A DNA stretch of 15,604 nucleotides, taken from IMG/VR virus record IMGVR_UViG_2657245483_000005; one strand, given 5' to 3'. Position 1 is the stretch's first letter; every line of letters begins with the position of its first letter. Below, piece by piece: positions 7,819 to 15,604 of this stretch. Made by a program: the position numbers and the translations under genes. The notes below the pieces were generated by a model. The model searched no databases and was not told where the DNA came from. It saw only the letters and a program-made list of their open reading frames with translations. The DNA is from a virus (lineage: Duplodnaviria > Heunggongvirae > Uroviricota > Caudoviricetes).

Positions 7819-8889
7819 ATGACTATTAACTGGAATCGCCATTTTGAACTGCGGCTTCTGAACGACAAGGGGAATGGCATATCCCTGTCGGACTTTAAAG
7901 TTACCTTCGCAATCGACTGGTTTAACTCGATGTGGCCACGTGTGGCGACGCTTAAAATTTACAACCTCAAGCGTGACACAATCACCCGGATTACGGGGGA
8001 TGAGTTTTCTCGCATTACCATCATAGCCGGTTATAACGGCCTGGCGCCGACGGTTACTGAAAGCGAGGTTGGGCAGGTTACCGAGATTTCATCTGAGCAA
8101 ACCGGCCAGACGCGCGGGCAAAATTACGGAGTCATTTTTGATGGGGAGATTCGTTTTACGATAACCGGGCGCGATAATCCTACCGATATTTTTACGCTAA
8201 TTCAGTCGGTAGATGGTCATAAGGCGTTCAACGAAGCCGTATCGTCCGGCAGCCTGGCGGCAGGATATAAGCTTGCCGACGTGCATACACTTCTGATGAA
8301 GGACTTTTCGCCTTACGGCATCACCCAGGGCATCACCGGGCAGTTCCCTGACAGGGTGATGCCACGCGGTCGCGTCTTCTTCGGCGCAACGCGCGACTAC
8401 ATGAGCAACCTAGCGGCGCAGTGCGAGGCTAACTGGCAATTTGTCGACGGCCAGCTGCAAATGGTGCCTGAGAATAAATATCTCCATGAAGCGATCGTGC
8501 TTAACACCAAAACTGGCCTGGTCGGTATGCCTCAGCAAACCATGGGGGCAGGCGTTAATGTGCGCTGTCTCATTAATCCAAACATTCGGGTTAACGGGCT
8601 TATTCAGTTGAACCAGGACTCGGTGTATCGCTCGCAATTACCGAACGATGAGATCCAAAGATCACAGGCAAGGATTACTGAGGCAAATGATAATGGTAAT
8701 CTTAGTACAGGCAGCGCGACGCTTGCGCAGCCCGCCAGTGTGGCAACTGATGGCGTTTACATAGTTCAGTCAATCAGCTACACCGGCGATACGAGAGGGA
8801 ATCCGTGGTATATGGATCTCATGTGTATGGCCAGAGGGGCGCGTGATTTACAATCGAATACGGCCCTACAGCGAACGGCTCCACAATGA
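7819..8889 (+). CDS. Baseplate hub protein (Mu gp44 / P2 gpD-like, tentative)
   Basis: 356-aa ORF located where the hub sits in Mu/P2-like baseplate modules, upstream of the spike, gpW-like, gpJ-like and gpI-like genes. Confidence 0.5.
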   Translation: MTINWNRHFELRLLNDKGNGISLSDFKVTFAIDWFNSMWPRVATLKIYNLKRDTITRITGDEFSRITIIAGYNGLAPTVTESEVGQVTEISSEQTGQTRGQNYGVIFDGEIRFTITGRDNPTDIFTLIQSVDGHKAFNEAVSSGSLAAGYKLADVHTLLMKDFSPYGITQGITGQFPDRVMPRGRVFFGATRDYMSNLAAQCEANWQFVDGQLQMVPENKYLHEAIVLNTKTGLVGMPQQTMGAGVNVRCLINPNIRVNGLIQLNQDSVYRSQLPNDEIQRSQARITEANDNGNLSTGSATLAQPASVATDGVYIVQSISYTGDTRGNPWYMDLMCMARGARDLQSNTALQRTAPQ

Positions 8890-9242
8890 AAAAAATACTT
8901 TTTTTGGTTTCTTTAGCATTCGTCAGTTTTTCTTCTACAGCGGCAAACACCGCTTATATGAAGTGTGGTCCCTTTACTTTCTCAACCTCATCAAGCAACG
9001 ACGGATATCCGAGGATAAACGGAGCAAAGCCTGATAGTCAGAAGGTGACATTCCTCAAAAAAGAGGGAGATTATGACAATATTAAAATGCAATGGATTGT
9101 CATGAATGAGAATTCTGGGCAGCGCTATGGTCTTGATTATATAAAACGCAATGGGAGAGGGATACTCAATGCCGAGGCCATCAGAATGAACATGAATGAA
9201 CCTCGAGTGTTTGGAACTTACGACTGCGTGAAGGCTAAGTAA
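8886..9242 (+). CDS. Small secreted protein of unknown function, cargo gene, AT-rich
   Basis: N-terminal signal peptide MKKILFLVSLAFVSFSSTAA with no lipobox, two Cys in the mature part, and composition sharply AT-richer than the flanking genes. The start overlaps the hub stop (ATGA at 8886-8889). Confidence 0.7.
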   Translation: MKKILFLVSLAFVSFSSTAANTAYMKCGPFTFSTSSSNDGYPRINGAKPDSQKVTFLKKEGDYDNIKMQWIVMNENSGQRYGLDYIKRNGRGILNAEAIRMNMNEPRVFGTYDCVKAK

Positions 9243-9251
9243 TTTAATAAA

Positions 9252-9272
9252 GGCGCCGGAACTACCGGCGCT
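9252..9272. terminator. GC-rich hairpin between convergent genes (candidate bidirectional terminator, better for the minus-strand gene)
   Basis: ggcgccgg / aacta / ccggcgct forms a 7-bp GC stem plus one G-U pair. On the minus strand it is followed by the U/A-rich tract ttattaaatt; on the plus strand the T-run is interrupted. Confidence 0.5.
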
Positions 9273-9275
9273 CAG

Positions 9276-9626
9276 TTACTCGTCTTTAAAACTTATAATT
9301 TTGTACTGCTCCAGTACTTCTGAAAGCTCCTTTGATGTCAGATTTTGTATTTCGATCGTACCTTTTTCAGTGGTTACCGTTATTTTTTTTGATGATCTGG
9401 TCTGTAACCATTTTCTCGCTATCGATGCAATGGCGATACAAGCTGGTGATGATGTGATAACGGTAATAGATATTTCGAGAATTGTGCCAATAGCGCCAGG
9501 AGAATCACCCGTTCTGACTCTTTTACTTACTACATAGTCATTAGCGGGTATGTTATCCTGGATTACAGGAAGTAACTCTTTCCAAATAGCTGGAGTAAAT
9601 TTTATGGTTGTTTCTGATTTTGGCAT
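9276..9626 (-). CDS. Hypothetical cytoplasmic protein, cargo gene, AT-rich
   Basis: 116-aa minus-strand ORF inside the AT-rich insertion, hydrophilic and balanced in composition. The plus-strand ORFs over the same DNA look like antisense junk. No strong RBS was seen, so the exact start is uncertain. Confidence 0.55.
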   Translation of the reverse strand: MPKSETTIKFTPAIWKELLPVIQDNIPANDYVVSKRVRTGDSPGAIGTILEISITVITSSPACIAIASIARKWLQTRSSKKITVTTEKGTIEIQNLTSKELSEVLEQYKIISFKDE

Positions 9627-9805
9627 AAAGGTTTCAGGCCCCTATCGAGAGAAGCTAAAAATTGCCTACCGGCTTTTCCTTAGCAGCCTGTATCTTGCTA
9701 CAAATCACGACGTTACCGTGGTTCTAAGCAAAACCTATATTAAGAGCTGCAATGAAGATAAATAGCACGCATTAACTCACCCTCAAATCCTGACATTTGA
9801 TCAGT

Positions 9806-9827
9806 AACCCGCCTCGGCGGGTTTTTT
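9806..9827 (+). terminator. Rho-independent terminator (plus strand)
   Basis: aacccgcc / tcg / ggcgggtt is a perfect 8-bp stem with a 3-nt loop, followed by tttttt; it ends 18 bp before the spike gene ATG. Confidence 0.75.
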
Positions 9828-9844
9828 ATTACCTGGAGAAAGCT

Positions 9845-10498
9845 ATGCCAGTATCAGCCCGCGCGCAGGACGGCAACGAATCGCAGACTCTTGAGGCGCA
9901 CCGCCACGCCATTTTCGGCAGCCTGCGCGTGGCTTTGCCGGGGATCATCCAGTCCTTTGACCCTGAAACAGTGACATGCACCGTGCAGCCAGCCATCTAC
10001 GGTCAGCGGCTCAGCGACGATGGCGCTCTGGTTTCTGAGGAGATACCGATTTTGCCAGACGTTCCAGTGGTGTTCCCCCGCGGCGGTGGCTGCACGTTAA
10101 CCTTCCCGGTAAAGGCCGGTGACGAGTGCCTCCTGGTCTTCTCCGATCGCTGCATCGACTTCTGGTGGCAGAGCGGCGGGGTGCAGGAACCGGTTGACCC
10201 GCGCCAGCATGACCTGAGTGATGCGTTTGCCATTGTGGGTCCGCAGTCGCAGGCGCAGAAAATCAGCAGCATCAGTACCAGTGCGGTTGAACTGCGCAGT
10301 GACGACGGTGGAACAAAACTGAGCCTTAACCCTTCATCCGGAGCGATAACGGGAACCGCGCCGGGAGGCTTCAACCTTAACGGTCTGAAAATTCTGCCTG
10401 ACGGCCGCCTGCAGCTGGTGGATGGCTCCATGGTTGATAAGCATACGCATGGCGGCGTGGAAGTCGGCGGCAGCAATACGAAACCACTGGGAGGGTAA
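9845..10498 (+). CDS. Baseplate central spike protein (gpV / Mu gp45-like)
   Basis: ATG at 9845 with GGAGA 7 nt upstream; the track's ATG at 9797 lies within the terminator. 217 aa, positioned after the hub, with an HxH motif (HTH, 10442-10450) near the C-terminus as in iron-binding spike apices. Confidence 0.55.
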   Translation: MPVSARAQDGNESQTLEAHRHAIFGSLRVALPGIIQSFDPETVTCTVQPAIYGQRLSDDGALVSEEIPILPDVPVVFPRGGGCTLTFPVKAGDECLLVFSDRCIDFWWQSGGVQEPVDPRQHDLSDAFAIVGPQSQAQKISSISTSAVELRSDDGGTKLSLNPSSGAITGTAPGGFNLNGLKILPDGRLQLVDGSMVDKHTHGGVEVGGSNTKPLGG

Positions 10499-12731: not shown

Positions 12732-13510
12732 TGGCTGGAACTAATGATTTTAAAGCGTTTGCGACAGATGCTAATGCAAATGTTACCTCGCAGGAGGAAT
12801 GGGAGACGCTAACCGCACTGAAGAAAGGATTCTCCTCGGGTAAAGCATCCAGCGCACAGGTCAGTAAAGCGCTGCGCCAACCGTCGACGATGGCGGCTGT
12901 ACTGGGGCAGTTTATCGCGAACGCCGAACTGGACGCGCTCGATGATGGTGACGTTGATGGACTGGTGGCAAAGCTGGCGACAGCGATTACCACAAACCTT
13001 GGTTTGGGAGAAGGCTCAGCATTACCCGTTGGCGTACCTGTTCCGTGGCCTTCAGCCACACCGCCGACAGGCTGGCTGAAATGCAACGGTGCCGCTTTTT
13101 CTGCTGAAGAATACCCGGAACTGGCAAAGGCTTACCCGACAAATAAATTGCCTGATTTACGTGGTGAGTTTATTCGTGGCTGGGATGACGGGCGTGGAGT
13201 GGATAGCGGTCGTACTTTATTAACGAATCAAGAGCATGCAGTAATTTCTCATAATCATGGAATACCTACAAAAGTGGGGTCAGTTACTAATATCCCGTAT
13301 GGAATAGAACAGGTTATATCTGATGAAACCATTTTTTCATCAGCAAAAACAGTTGGTGTGGATTACTGGTCTAACAGTGAAAGAGTTTTTACTTATACCT
13401 CTGGTGGAAGAAATGGTGCTGAATCAGTGAGTTCACCTGATGCCTCCTCTTTAATTAAAGAAACCAGACCACGGAACCTAGCATTTGCGTATATCGTGAG
13501 GGCTGCATAA
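12731..13510 (+). CDS. Tail fibre protein: constant N-terminal part (codons 1-90) plus currently joined variable C-terminal part
   Basis: TAATG overlap start at 12731 (an alternative in-frame ATG lies at 12713). The C-terminal part contains LPDLRGEFIRGWDDGRGVDSGRTL, a collar-type motif I recall from tail fibre proteins. A crossover site sits at codons 86-94. Confidence 0.8.
   Translation: MAGTNDFKAFATDANANVTSQEEWETLTALKKGFSSGKASSAQVSKALRQPSTMAAVLGQFIANAELDALDDGDVDGLVAKLATAITTNLGLGEGSALPVGVPVPWPSATPPTGWLKCNGAAFSAEEYPELAKAYPTNKLPDLRGEFIRGWDDGRGVDSGRTLLTNQEHAVISHNHGIPTKVGSVTNIPYGIEQVISDETIFSSAKTVGVDYWSNSERVFTYTSGGRNGAESVSSPDASSLIKETRPRNLAFAYIVRAA
12987..13012. repeat. Left crossover site of the invertible segment (hix/gix-like 26-bp imperfect palindrome)
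   Basis: ttaccacaaaccttggtttgggagaa, central dinucleotide TT at 12999-13000. It is 21/26 identical to the reverse complement of the site at 14971-14996. Confidence 0.7.
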
Positions 13511-14112
13511 TGGTGAAAGCAAAATTAAACAGTGCGTTTATTGCCACCGTGGCAGGTGAAATCACTGTGTACAACTACCGGGGCGACACCCGCGAATACA
13601 TATCCTCATCGGTTGAGTATCTGCCTGTGGGGGTGGGTATTCCTGCCAATTCCTGTACCGATGCGCCCGGCACACATAAAGCTGGTTATGCAATCTGCCG
13701 TTCTGCAGATTTTAACTCATGGGAATATGTGCCAGACCATCGCGGTGAAACGGTATATAGCACTGAAACAGGAGAATCAAAAGAAATCACAGCTCCGGGT
13801 GATTACTCTGAAAATACAACTACTATCGCCCCGTTAACGCCATTCGATAAATGGGATGGTGAGAAATGGGTGACCGATACTGAGGCACAGCATAGCGCCG
13901 CAGTAGACGTGGCAGAAGCACAGCGCCAGTCGCTGATTGATGCTGCTATGGCTTCCATCAGTCTGATTCAGCTGAAATTGCAGGCCGGGCGGCAACTGAC
14001 GCAAGCAGAAATCACTCGCCTTAACGCTGTGCTGGATTACATTGACACGGTGACGGCAACAGATACCAGCACCGCGCCGGATGTCATCTGGCCTGAACTG
14101 CCGGAGGCGTAG
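13510..14112 (+). CDS. Tail fibre assembly protein (Mu U / lambda Tfa-like), currently expressed orientation
   Basis: TAATG overlap with the fibre stop; 200 aa; C-terminal LDYIDTV..DTSTAPDVIWPELP matches the conserved Tfa C-terminal pattern. Confidence 0.75.
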   Translation: MVKAKLNSAFIATVAGEITVYNYRGDTREYISSSVEYLPVGVGIPANSCTDAPGTHKAGYAICRSADFNSWEYVPDHRGETVYSTETGESKEITAPGDYSENTTTIAPLTPFDKWDGEKWVTDTEAQHSAAVDVAEAQRQSLIDAAMASISLIQLKLQAGRQLTQAEITRLNAVLDYIDTVTATDTSTAPDVIWPELPEA

Positions 14113-14527
14113 GCCATTCAATATCTGGAGCACTGGAGGTATCAACCAGTTCCAGTGCGTCCAGATAATCCAGCCACAAATTATATTGCGCCAGTTCCTC
14201 ACTTTTCAGACGACCAATCGCCGCTTTGCCAGGCCACTGATGAGTATTGATGTAGGTATTGACTTCAGAAACCAAAGATATTTTTTTCATTTCAGCCGTC
14301 AACACCTCATCCTCTTTTGAAGGGGGTGGGGAATTAATCCATACTGGCCGTCCTGAACTGTCAGCGCCAATTTCTTTCCCTTCTGGATGCAGCCCAAGAA
14401 ATTGCTCATATGTTTCTCTGGTAATTTCAATAACATCATCAGGAAGCGTTCCCGCATCCTCATATTCTGGAAACAATTCTTGCAGATAAAAACTTTTACT
14501 TCCGGGTGAAAAGAATACTGAGTTCAT
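14084..14527 (-). CDS. Alternative tail fibre assembly protein (U'-like)
   Basis: Minus-strand 147-aa ORF with C-terminal LDYLDALELVDTSSAPDIEWPTPP, matching the Tfa pattern; located directly downstream of the minus-strand fibre tip. Confidence 0.7.
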   Translation of the reverse strand: MNSVFFSPGSKSFYLQELFPEYEDAGTLPDDVIEITRETYEQFLGLHPEGKEIGADSSGRPVWINSPPPSKEDEVLTAEMKKISLVSEVNTYINTHQWPGKAAIGRLKSEELAQYNLWLDYLDALELVDTSSAPDIEWPTPPAVQAR

Positions 14528-14529
14528 TC

Positions 14530-14982
14530 TTACCGTCCAATGATTAATGCTGAGACGCTGGTATCTGAAGGAAAGGCTGCATTCAGTGGTTTGTCGACTT
14601 TGAACACAATCGTATTATTCCCCCTGACAGCGGCAAAAGAACAAACCGCAGTCGCGTATGAACCTGTAATATTACTGGATACACCACCATAAGCTGTTGT
14701 TGATACCAGAGGGATAACGCCCAGCACCTTATTAGGAAATACAAAGGGCAATGTGGCTGTGGCAATATAAGACTTATTAGAACCTGTAATGGCATAAGCA
14801 TTATCAGTCATTCCATTCATCGCCACCGGGCCGCTTATACTTACAGTAACCATCTGAATGATTAGCCCGTCAGGTTGACGAATCACAAAATTTCCATTGC
14901 CACCAGTAACCGTCCAGAAAGACATATCAGGGATTTGGTTTTCCCCGTTGCCCACATTCCGTTTTGCCGCTTCTCCCAAACC
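14530..14982 (-). CDS. Alternative tail fibre C-terminal cassette (Sv'-like), startless, fused to the fibre gene only after inversion
   Basis: Minus-strand frame open from the right crossover site to the stop at 14530. The sequence after the core encodes GLGE, the same residues that follow the core in the plus-strand fibre, and the frame matches. Confidence 0.7.
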   Translation of the reverse strand, partial: GLGEAAKRNVGNGENQIPDMSFWTVTGGNGNFVIRQPDGLIIQMVTVSISGPVAMNGMTDNAYAITGSNKSYIATATLPFVFPNKVLGVIPLVSTTAYGGVSSNITGSYATAVCSFAAVRGNNTIVFKVDKPLNAAFPSDTSVSALIIGR

Positions 14983-14996
14983 AACCTTTTTTATAA
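14971..14996. repeat. Right crossover site of the invertible segment (hix/gix-like)
   Basis: ttctcccaaaccaaccttttttataa, central AA at 14983-14984; the inner 14 bp are identical to the inner half of the left site in inverted orientation. It lies 60 bp upstream of the invertase ATG. Confidence 0.7.
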
Positions 14997-15026
14997 CCAT
15001 CAAAAATCTGGTGATGCTTCGCCGTT

Positions 15027-15049
15027 TCTCCTGTTTTCATAACAGGAGA
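15027..15049 (+). promoter_or_regulatory. Perfect 9-bp stem hairpin that includes the invertase Shine-Dalgarno
   Basis: tctcctgtt / ttcat / aacaggaga; the right arm contains AGGAG, 7 nt before the ATG at 15056. Confidence 0.5.
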
Positions 15050-15055
15050 AATCCC

Positions 15056-15604
15056 ATGATTTACGGTTATGCCCGAGTATCAACAAACCACCAGGACACT
15101 GAATTGCAACTAACGGCGCTCAAGTCAGCGGGTTGTGAGAAAATTTTTGAAGAGCATGCCAGCGGGAGGAAATCGAATCGGCCGGTTCTAAAACGGCTGA
15201 TCGCCACTATGCAGCCGGGGGATGAACTGGTGGTCTGGAAGCTGGACAGGATAGGCCGCAACGTTCTGCATGCGCTGTTGATGTTCCAGCAGTTACAGGA
15301 AAAGGGTATCAACTTCCGCAGTATTACCGATGGCGTGGATCTCAAAACAGCCAGCGGCCGCTATAACTTTCGTAACATCCTTTCCGCAGCACAATATGAA
15401 TCTGATCTTAATAGCGAACGTACCTTAGCAGGGCTGGCCGTAGCCAGGGCAAAAGGGCGAGTTGGTGGTCGCAGGCCTAAGTTCACGGATGAGCAATGGC
15501 GGGAAATGGGGGAGCGGATGGCAACCGGTGAATCACGACAAAGCGTATCAAAAACGTATGGAGTAGGGCTCTCAACTCTGTATAAAAAGTTTCCAGCTAG
15601 CTGA
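15056..15604 (+). CDS. Serine DNA invertase (Hin/Gin/Cin/Pin family)
   Basis: Starts MIYGYARVSTNHQDTELQ, with the catalytic Ser in the RVST motif, and has a C-terminal helix-turn-helix (GESRQSVSKTYGVGLSTLYKKFPA). The track ORF begins at 14897, but the family-conserved N-terminus and RBS place the start at 15056. The stop is at the window end. Confidence 0.93.
   Translation: MIYGYARVSTNHQDTELQLTALKSAGCEKIFEEHASGRKSNRPVLKRLIATMQPGDELVVWKLDRIGRNVLHALLMFQQLQEKGINFRSITDGVDLKTASGRYNFRNILSAAQYESDLNSERTLAGLAVARAKGRVGGRRPKFTDEQWREMGERMATGESRQSVSKTYGVGLSTLYKKFPAS

Follow-up and report, generated by a model that had tools for sequence, protein, structure and literature searches.

An intrinsic terminator ahead of the spike gene of a lambdoid prophage, probably the end of a small cargo gene in a moron-type cassette

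Why does a strong intrinsic terminator stand directly before the spike gene, within the tail genes of a prophage? We examined this question in a DNA stretch of 15,604 nucleotides (the window; all positions refer to it) from the virus record IMGVR_UViG_2657245483_000005, which is the tail module of a lambdoid prophage. A preliminary description of the window had noticed the terminator and offered two alternatives: either it ends a small RNA (sRNA) made from an interval free of open reading frames (ORFs), or it is an insertion's own terminator, and the genes downstream need a separate late promoter or antitermination. Our analysis favors the second. With a probability of roughly 0.6, the terminator belongs to a small cargo gene in a moron-type cassette and is by-passed by Q-dependent late transcription. 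For comparison we used 65 related loci, 37 of them unique, retrieved from IMG/VR, from Logan/ENA/NCBI contigs and from one genome-collection contig solely by protein similarity to the small protein or to its divergent neighbor, the EACC1-like protein, and not by the motif described below. The alignment was anchored on the EACC1 start codon, and identities given for segments are mean pairwise identities among the 37 unique loci. The elements at issue are the following.

9592 to 9595, plus strand: GGAG ribosome-binding site (RBS) of the small gene, 8 nucleotides 5' of its ATG; per-column identity about 0.5-0.9.
9604 to 9765, plus strand: conserved small gene of 53 amino acids (MVVSDFGIKVSGPYREKLKIAYRLFLSSLYLATNHDVTVVLSKTYIKSCNEDK), with ATG start, GGAG RBS and coding signature.
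9766 to 9786, plus strand: proximal 3' untranslated region (3' UTR) of the small gene, variable in sequence; pairwise identity 0.53.
9787 to 9805, plus strand: conserved non-coding motif ATCCTGACATTTGATCAGT (CCTGAYATTTGATCAGT); pairwise identity 0.93.
9806 to 9830, plus strand: intrinsic terminator as judged from folding, a strict scan and conservation; 7-bp stem, CUCG loop, T6 then ATT.
9835 to 10498, plus strand: GGAG RBS (9835-9838) and spike gene with its ATG at 9845; spike N-terminal domain, Pfam E = 1e-43.
9276 to 9626, minus strand: EACC1-like gene of 116 amino acids; PF19953, 29.1 bits (cut-off 23.6), E = 1e-6, residues 37-106.

Fold and conservation mark the hairpin with its T-run (9806-9827) as a genuine, conserved intrinsic terminator. 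The letters at 9806-9830 read AACCCGCCTCGGCGGGTTTTTTATT. ViennaRNA pairs the arms AACCCGC (9806-9812) and GCGGGTT (9817-9823) through five G-C and two A-U pairs, seven in all, around the four-nucleotide loop CUCG, with a folding free energy (dG) of -12.5 kcal/mol; in a 70-nucleotide context the fold reaches z = -2.97. The six Ts occupy 9822-9827, the first two of them within the stem, and ATTA comes next. A strict scan of both strands of the window, requiring a perfect 7-bp stem with at least five G-C pairs, a loop of 3-8 nucleotides and a T-run, returned the site at 9806 as its sole match on either strand, with 0.023 matches expected per window in first-order Markov simulations. A looser consensus scan showed no enrichment of terminators in the window (12 found vs 15.6 expected). 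Strict scan, free energy and conservation thus agree with the preliminary description, which had placed a strong plus-strand terminator with six Ts at 9806-9827, 18 bp ahead of the spike ATG; this ATG indeed lies 18 nucleotides past the last T, with 17 in between. The stem of 8 bp and the loop of 3 nucleotides given there have to be corrected to 7 bp and 4 nucleotides, as an eighth pair would leave a loop of two.

The terminator is kept in more than 35 distinct related prophage loci. Pairwise identity is 0.93 and 0.95 in the two stem arms vs 0.56 in the loop, and 0.79 in the T-tail. Changes on both sides of the stem occur in L031 (AAACCGC/GCGGTTT) and in L078 (CCCGTC/GACGGG), and RNAalifold reports two stem pairs with such changes. 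In L089 a hairpin of wholly different sequence occupies the place of the terminator.

The preliminary description had found no convincing plus-strand ORF in the roughly 180 bp before the terminator, and had concluded that the terminator is not downstream of any plus-strand gene. Both statements give way to the 53-codon ORF at 9604-9765, which is preceded by GGAG and ends 40 nucleotides before the hairpin, so that the terminator lies shortly 3' of a gene on the same strand. Its GGAG is mostly conserved among the compared loci. Among 14 unique nucleotide versions of this ORF, the variable columns at codon positions 1, 2 and 3 number 24, 12 and 44, each out of 50. The ratio of nonsynonymous to synonymous variation (pN/pS) is 0.21 when the ORF is read in its own frame and 1.2-2.5 in four of the five others; the fifth, a minus-strand frame that has its wobble position in common with the small ORF, gives 0.35. 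The concentration of variation at third codon positions and the low in-frame pN/pS argue that the ORF codes for protein. A second, much more divergent clade supplies a further comparison: there the ORF starts with GTG or TTG after GAGAGG and encodes MKTDLVITFGGSFRKR..AIWSLSGT..ALVF.., with a pN/pS of 0.37 in frame vs 0.84 and 1.79 in the other two plus-strand frames. By these substitution patterns, 9604-9765 is a protein-coding gene under purifying selection.

The small protein is rare. Fifteen homologues were found among 5.8 billion proteins, nearly all of 52-53 amino acids and from E. coli and Klebsiella. Among 1.84 billion cluster representatives, an exhaustive search with a profile gave eight matches, of which seven are credible clusters of 51-63 amino acids and the eighth is a repetitive protein of 340 amino acids, apparently spurious. 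The 53-amino-acid protein has no match in Pfam, NCBIfam, PHROGs, PADLOC or PDB sequences, and AlphaFold2, run on an alignment of 13 sequences, returned a poor model (pLDDT 65, pTM 0.32) consisting of a single long helix. Its counterpart in other E. coli prophages carries the RefSeq/PGAP accession WP_016243572.1. For the genome to which the window belongs (NZ_CP062811, 100% identical), the annotation lists, of the two overlapping genes, the minus-strand one alone and omits the small gene. Depending on the genome, PGAP calls either the EACC1-like gene or the 53-amino-acid gene, never both. For annotation this means that a real gene is inconsistently called.

How, then, are the spike gene and the genes behind it transcribed? 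The 17 nucleotides between the T-run and the spike ATG are too few to accommodate a promoter past the terminator; hence the spike and later genes would be transcribed by polymerase that passes the terminator. The rest of the prophage is lambdoid, with a cI/Cro-like switch, O/P-type replication genes and genes of the NinG/RusA region, and it encodes a Q-family antiterminator (PF03589, E = 9e-43; phrog_127, E = 5e-100). The gene order is Q, holin, lysozyme, Rz1-like gene, terminase, head and tail. From this gene content, and from what is generally known of lambdoid phages, a Q-modified late transcription complex is expected to pass the terminator.

The position and composition of the unit point in the same direction. 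G+C content is 0.35-0.45 over about 8825-9800 vs 0.55-0.63 in the spike and baseplate genes downstream. The tail genes are 70-76% identical in nucleotide sequence to those of Salmonella phage SEN34 (a Brunovirus) and of the Klebsiella phages GZ7 and Mulock, and all relatives have a variable slot before the spike gene and after the hub-like gene or the usual phrog_3443-type gene. The slot holds unrelated plus-strand genes in SEN34 and Mulock and an unrelated minus-strand gene in GZ7; other prophages fill it with a KilA-N gene, with Arc/Arc/Bro-N/ANT antirepressor cassettes, with a gene of 241 amino acids or with a minus-strand gene of 151 amino acids. The loci with differing content include SEN34, GZ7, Mulock, L004, L005, L032, L089 and L093. 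Two more features border or lie within this slot in the window.

8886 to 9242, plus strand: low-G+C gene of 118 amino acids, phrog_3443, with a signal-peptide-like N-terminal segment; homologues in Mulock and SEN34 by eye.
9253 to 9271, minus strand: 3' end of the EACC1-like gene, with a terminator-like hairpin, GCGCCGG-TAGTT-CCGGCGC, and CTTTATT next to it.

The slot is bordered on its left by the gene at 8886-9242, whose translation is coupled to that of the hub-like gene before it; past the slot, the spike gene is the first backbone gene. The hairpin at 9253-9271 has no plus-strand T-run behind it, and relatives carry hairpins of other sequence at the same place. Taken as a whole, the terminator, the small gene and the EACC1-like gene appear to be a low-G+C cargo unit between baseplate genes. 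The published definition of a moron names an own promoter, an own terminator, a deviant G+C content and a position inside the tail operon (PMC3594210). Of these features we find extra DNA in a differently filled slot, deviant G+C and an own terminator at 9806-9830.

We thus propose the following mechanism. The segment 9592-9830 would be a small plus-strand transcription unit, made up of an RBS, the 53-codon gene, a 3' UTR of 62 nucleotides and a strong intrinsic terminator. Together with the divergent EACC1-like gene, the small gene would constitute a moron cassette placed between the 118-amino-acid gene that follows the hub gene and the spike gene, in the late operon of a SEN34/Brunovirus-like prophage. 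In the lysogen, or wherever ordinary RNA polymerase is at work, the small-gene transcript would end at about 9827-9830, and termination there would shield the spike, baseplate and fibre genes from the transcription of the cassette. In the lytic cycle, polymerase modified by Q would arrive from the late promoter ahead of the lysis genes and ignore the terminator, and the antiterminated read-through would supply transcription of the downstream tail genes. This account comes close to the second alternative of the preliminary description, which the low-G+C unit, the 17-nucleotide gap and the Q gene now make the better supported one. For phage biology, a terminator at this place would then be no puzzle, since a cargo unit within a late operon antiterminated by Q is expected to end in one.

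The partner of the small gene is a diverged EACC1 homologue. PGAP likewise names the product of 9276-9626 EACC1; the protein has a central hydrophobic segment, and its gene has a pN/pS of 0.27, indicating purifying selection. PADLOC gave no match for it. EACC1 proteins are described as autoinhibited monomers that an adjacent caspase-like protease cleaves into membrane pore formers (Evans et al. 2025 preprint, bioRxiv 10.1101/2025.11.14.688446). The neighbors of the gene in the window are tail genes and the 53-amino-acid gene, and we found no adjacent caspase-like/cysteine protease or sensor NTPase; it is a stand-alone EACC1-family gene within a prophage tail operon. The small gene (ATG at 9604) and the EACC1-like gene (ATG complementary to 9624-9626) diverge from a region in which their first 23 nucleotides are common to both. 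This geometry is identical in every locus of both clades, including the second clade, in which EACC1 is only 25-30% identical to the protein of the window. Since the shared stretch contains both start codons, RNA made from the small gene is bound to be antisense to the codon at which EACC1 starts.

The most conserved part of the unit codes for no protein. The 19-nucleotide motif just before the terminator hairpin has a pairwise identity of 0.93, vs 0.61 for the small ORF as a whole (0.64, 0.70 and 0.48 at codon positions 1, 2 and 3) and 0.47 for the first 80 nucleotides of the spike gene; the spacer to the spike gene stands at 0.42. The motif is therefore far above both flanking genes. Its first base lies exactly 162 nucleotides from the EACC1 ATG in every locus checked, in both clades (9626 to 9788 in the window), and neither the small ORF nor the unconserved spacer of 21-22 nucleotides past its stop contains an insertion or deletion in any related locus. 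The motif is unchanged in the divergent clade. L089 keeps it although a different hairpin follows and EACC1 is cut to 13 codons, and L093 keeps motif and terminator without EACC1 and without the small ORF. In L093 (positions 2443-2560; E. coli ERP001) motif and terminator stand directly 5' of the spike gene, and the cargo is the unrelated minus-strand gene of 151 amino acids. The motif-terminator element is therefore separable from the gene that usually precedes it. Since the flanks are highly diverged on both sides, recent recombination cannot explain this island of conservation, and the motif is under selection at the nucleotide level.

As to its distribution, the motif is present in 19 of 5426 complete E. 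coli genomes. A scan of genome-collection contigs gave a single locus, because that collection has one genome per species. In a phage database, megablast and tblastn searches with the window's own version gave no match; the clade-B version of motif and hairpin, in contrast, matched the sequenced Hafnia phage yong1, where the motif lies between gp69, which is the small ORF called in truncated form, and gp70, the spike gene. Within the prophage the motif is single-copy, so it is not a repeated operator, and repeats around the locus amount to short matches of chance quality. Folding of the motif yields only a weak 4-bp CUGA/UCAG hairpin, which is invariant, so that covariation is uninformative. 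Several familiar elements were compared with it by eye and set aside. A LexA box does not fit, as the motif reads CTG-N9-CAG whereas LexA needs N10; nor do IHF sites, nut boxA/boxB, RfaH ops, a Hin/Gin-type recombination site, or sigma-E, sigma-32, sigma-54 and sigma-28 promoters. An extended hairpin in the read-through RNA, like lambda sib, was likewise discarded, the flanks having no conserved pairing.

Several points weigh against the moron account. The scans with the sigma-70 consensus and with a home-made position weight matrix (PWM) yielded no convincing plus-strand sigma-70 promoter for the small gene, and on both strands nothing rose above background or was conserved. The best plus-strand match, TTACCG-17-TATATT (9713-9741), is inside the small ORF, varies with codon wobble and is unconserved; the best minus-strand match (9626-9599) is within the EACC1 coding sequence; and a promoter scan of L093 gave none that is clear. 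The preliminary description had likewise been unable to name promoters with confidence. In L032 and L089 the small gene begins about 30-70 nucleotides past an antirepressor-type gene and may be co-transcribed with it rather than from a promoter of its own. The function of Q is taken from family membership only, and the terminator stem is degraded in one relative, L034. Finally, the account leaves unaccounted for both a motif far better conserved than the gene it follows and the persistence of motif and terminator in L093, where no plus-strand gene precedes them.

These last two facts invite a different reading of the product, in which it is wholly or additionally a regulatory RNA: motif, hairpin and U-tail would be the end of a 3'-UTR-derived or dual-function sRNA acting on host or phage mRNA. 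The steep rise in conservation from the ORF (0.70 at its best codon position) and the proximal 3' UTR (0.53) to the motif speaks for it, as do the survival of the motif beside a different hairpin, without the small ORF or with a distant EACC1, the run of at least six U after the hairpin, and the presence of a single copy in the prophage. On the other side, the whole window has no match at the Rfam gathering threshold, and in E-value mode the matches in the segment 9450-9900, to P9, rsmX and isrK (E = 0.9-2.7), were all of the generic terminator-hairpin kind. No conserved promoter lies inside or upstream of the candidate RNA. Predicted duplexes of the motif with 59 translation-initiation regions of the same prophage do not surpass those of shuffled motifs, of which 96% score equally well, and the CUGA/UCAG hairpin shows no covariation. 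Conservation of the motif could moreover reflect a site at the DNA level instead. We regard this reading as tentative and rather unlikely; it is, however, compatible with the moron account of the terminator itself. A part of the first alternative of the preliminary description survives. An sRNA from an ORF-free interval does not stand as worded, since the interval is coding, but two of its elements, the antisense cover of the EACC1 start and the 19 conserved nucleotides, do stand. The antisense cover itself can be made the centre of an explanation, with the plus-strand transcript as a cis-antisense regulator that blocks translation of, or destabilises, the mRNA of a potential pore-forming toxin. 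The 23-nucleotide overlap with its constant geometry would fit, and so would the fixed spacing of the motif from the EACC1 ATG; a transcript starting at or upstream of its own RBS would cover at least the first 30 nucleotides of the EACC1 coding sequence, and the terminator would set the 3' end of the antisense RNA. EACC1 family members are, according to experiments, pore-forming toxins released by proteolysis (bioRxiv 10.1101/2025.11.14.688446), and with no protease gene adjacent some other control would be needed. Yet truncation or replacement of EACC1 (L004, L029/L030, L032, L089) leaves small gene, motif and terminator intact, and the plus-strand RNA clearly doubles as a coding mRNA. Full-length EACC1 is autoinhibited according to the preprint (bioRxiv 10.1101/2025.11.14.688446) and may need no antitoxin; classical type I toxins have fewer than 60 amino acids, whereas the EACC1-like protein has 116; and the scans identified no promoter for either transcript. 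An antisense role thus seems doubtful to us.

The terminator could also be a feature of the phage backbone, namely a partial terminator or attenuator, or a stabiliser of mRNA 3' ends, that sets how much spike, wedge and fibre protein is made relative to the tail proteins encoded upstream. SEN34 and Mulock, despite their other cargo, have a hairpin and T-run immediately before the spike RBS, with an identical stem in SEN34 (AACCCGCC/GGCGGGTT) and a different one in Mulock. Several other phages match the hairpin part of the query only, and L093 retains the terminator without a plus-strand cargo gene. However, GZ7, with its minus-strand cargo gene, has a hairpin but no T-run, and L005 and L089 carry further cargo genes between terminator and spike, which argues that the terminator travels with the cargo. 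A 7-bp stem rich in G-C pairs and followed by at least six U resembles a full-strength rather than a weak terminator, and a Q-dependent operon needs no internal attenuators. Of the accounts weighed here we consider this one the least probable. Improbable too, though ranked above the backbone account, is a combination of the two RNA-based ideas. In it a dual-function RNA would encode the 53-amino-acid protein and, through the motif or the antisense cover of the EACC1 start or both, control a protease-less EACC1-type effector or a host mRNA, so that the locus would form a new defence or exclusion module of two genes plus an RNA, borne as tail-operon cargo by SEN34-like prophages.

Comparison with known systems places the moron account in context. 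Morons of the HK97 gene 15 type, as defined by Juhala and Hendrix (PMC3594210), show the same low-G+C unit wedged into a tail operon with a factor-independent terminator downstream, the same differently filled slot in relatives, and a lambdoid host phage with Q. In contrast to that definition, our scans identified no promoter; the unit here is a divergent pair with overlapping start codons and not a single gene, and its 3' UTR motif is better conserved than the cargo proteins.

P22 offers a parallel of position. Its immI region precedes the tailspike gene within the late operon and fills the same slot ahead of a tail-tip gene. Genes for Arc, Mnt or Ant are absent from the window itself, and no antisense RNA like sar was recognised in it; L032, L089 and L091 do hold Arc/Mnt-like and antirepressor genes there. 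In these three loci (L089 2430-2760, L032 1027-3162, L091 1-2692), Arc/Mnt-like repressor genes and Bro-N/ANT/KilA-N antirepressor genes occupy the slot as an immI-like cassette, and the small gene comes after them. In L089 the 13-codon EACC1 remnant abuts a minus-strand terminator, and in L091 an EACC1-like gene is still present.

Likenesses on the RNA side are also instructive. In SgrS/SgrT a small ORF occupies the 5' part of the RNA, and the base-pairing seed lies just before the terminator. In 3'-UTR-derived sRNAs a stretch before the U-tailed terminator hairpin is conserved above the upstream ORF, and the same is seen in dual-function RNAs. The transcript considered here resembles the SgrS/SgrT and CpxQ/DapZ class in being short (about 240 nucleotides if started near the RBS), with a small ORF in front, a conserved stretch that is predicted to be mostly unpaired, a U-tailed hairpin, and a non-coding part conserved above the ORF; unlike that class, it has no Rfam match and is confined to a rare prophage group, as the count of E. 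coli genomes above indicates. As in SymR/SymE and Sok/hok, a transcript of the other strand would overlie the start region of a gene whose product may damage membranes, and this antisense strand has an intrinsic terminator of its own. Type I toxins are small and hydrophobic, usually of fewer than 60 amino acids, and their antitoxins are non-coding. Here, in contrast, the 'antisense' RNA is itself a conserved coding mRNA, the putative toxin is a 116-amino-acid member of the EACC1 family, and the small gene outlasts loss of the toxin gene. With the EACC1-protease defence modules (Kaur et al. 2020, PMC7159879; Evans et al. 2025) the locus has in common the Pfam EACC1 domain and a central hydrophobic segment; it differs from them in having no adjacent cysteine protease or NTPase sensor, which in such modules are usually fused to each other, in its site in a tail operon and in its 53-amino-acid partner gene.

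The locus thus presents a diverged EACC1 homologue without a protease, arranged start-to-start with a tiny conserved gene whose 3' UTR motif is more constrained than either protein. If the motif or the overlap were to regulate the effector, the unit would be a compact new form of toxin control and a new phage-borne regulatory RNA.

Other observations concern the remainder of the window. PGAP names a homologue of the 8886-9242 gene in another genome as 'STY1065/STY2022 family', and this gene is conserved in Mulock and partly in SEN34. Positions 246-255 are a run of 10 N (masked bases). At 13510-15553, a tail-fibre assembly gene faces an inverted second copy, with another minus-strand ORF and a serine recombinase gene at about 15005-15553; this arrangement resembles an invertible host-range switch of the Gin/Pin type.

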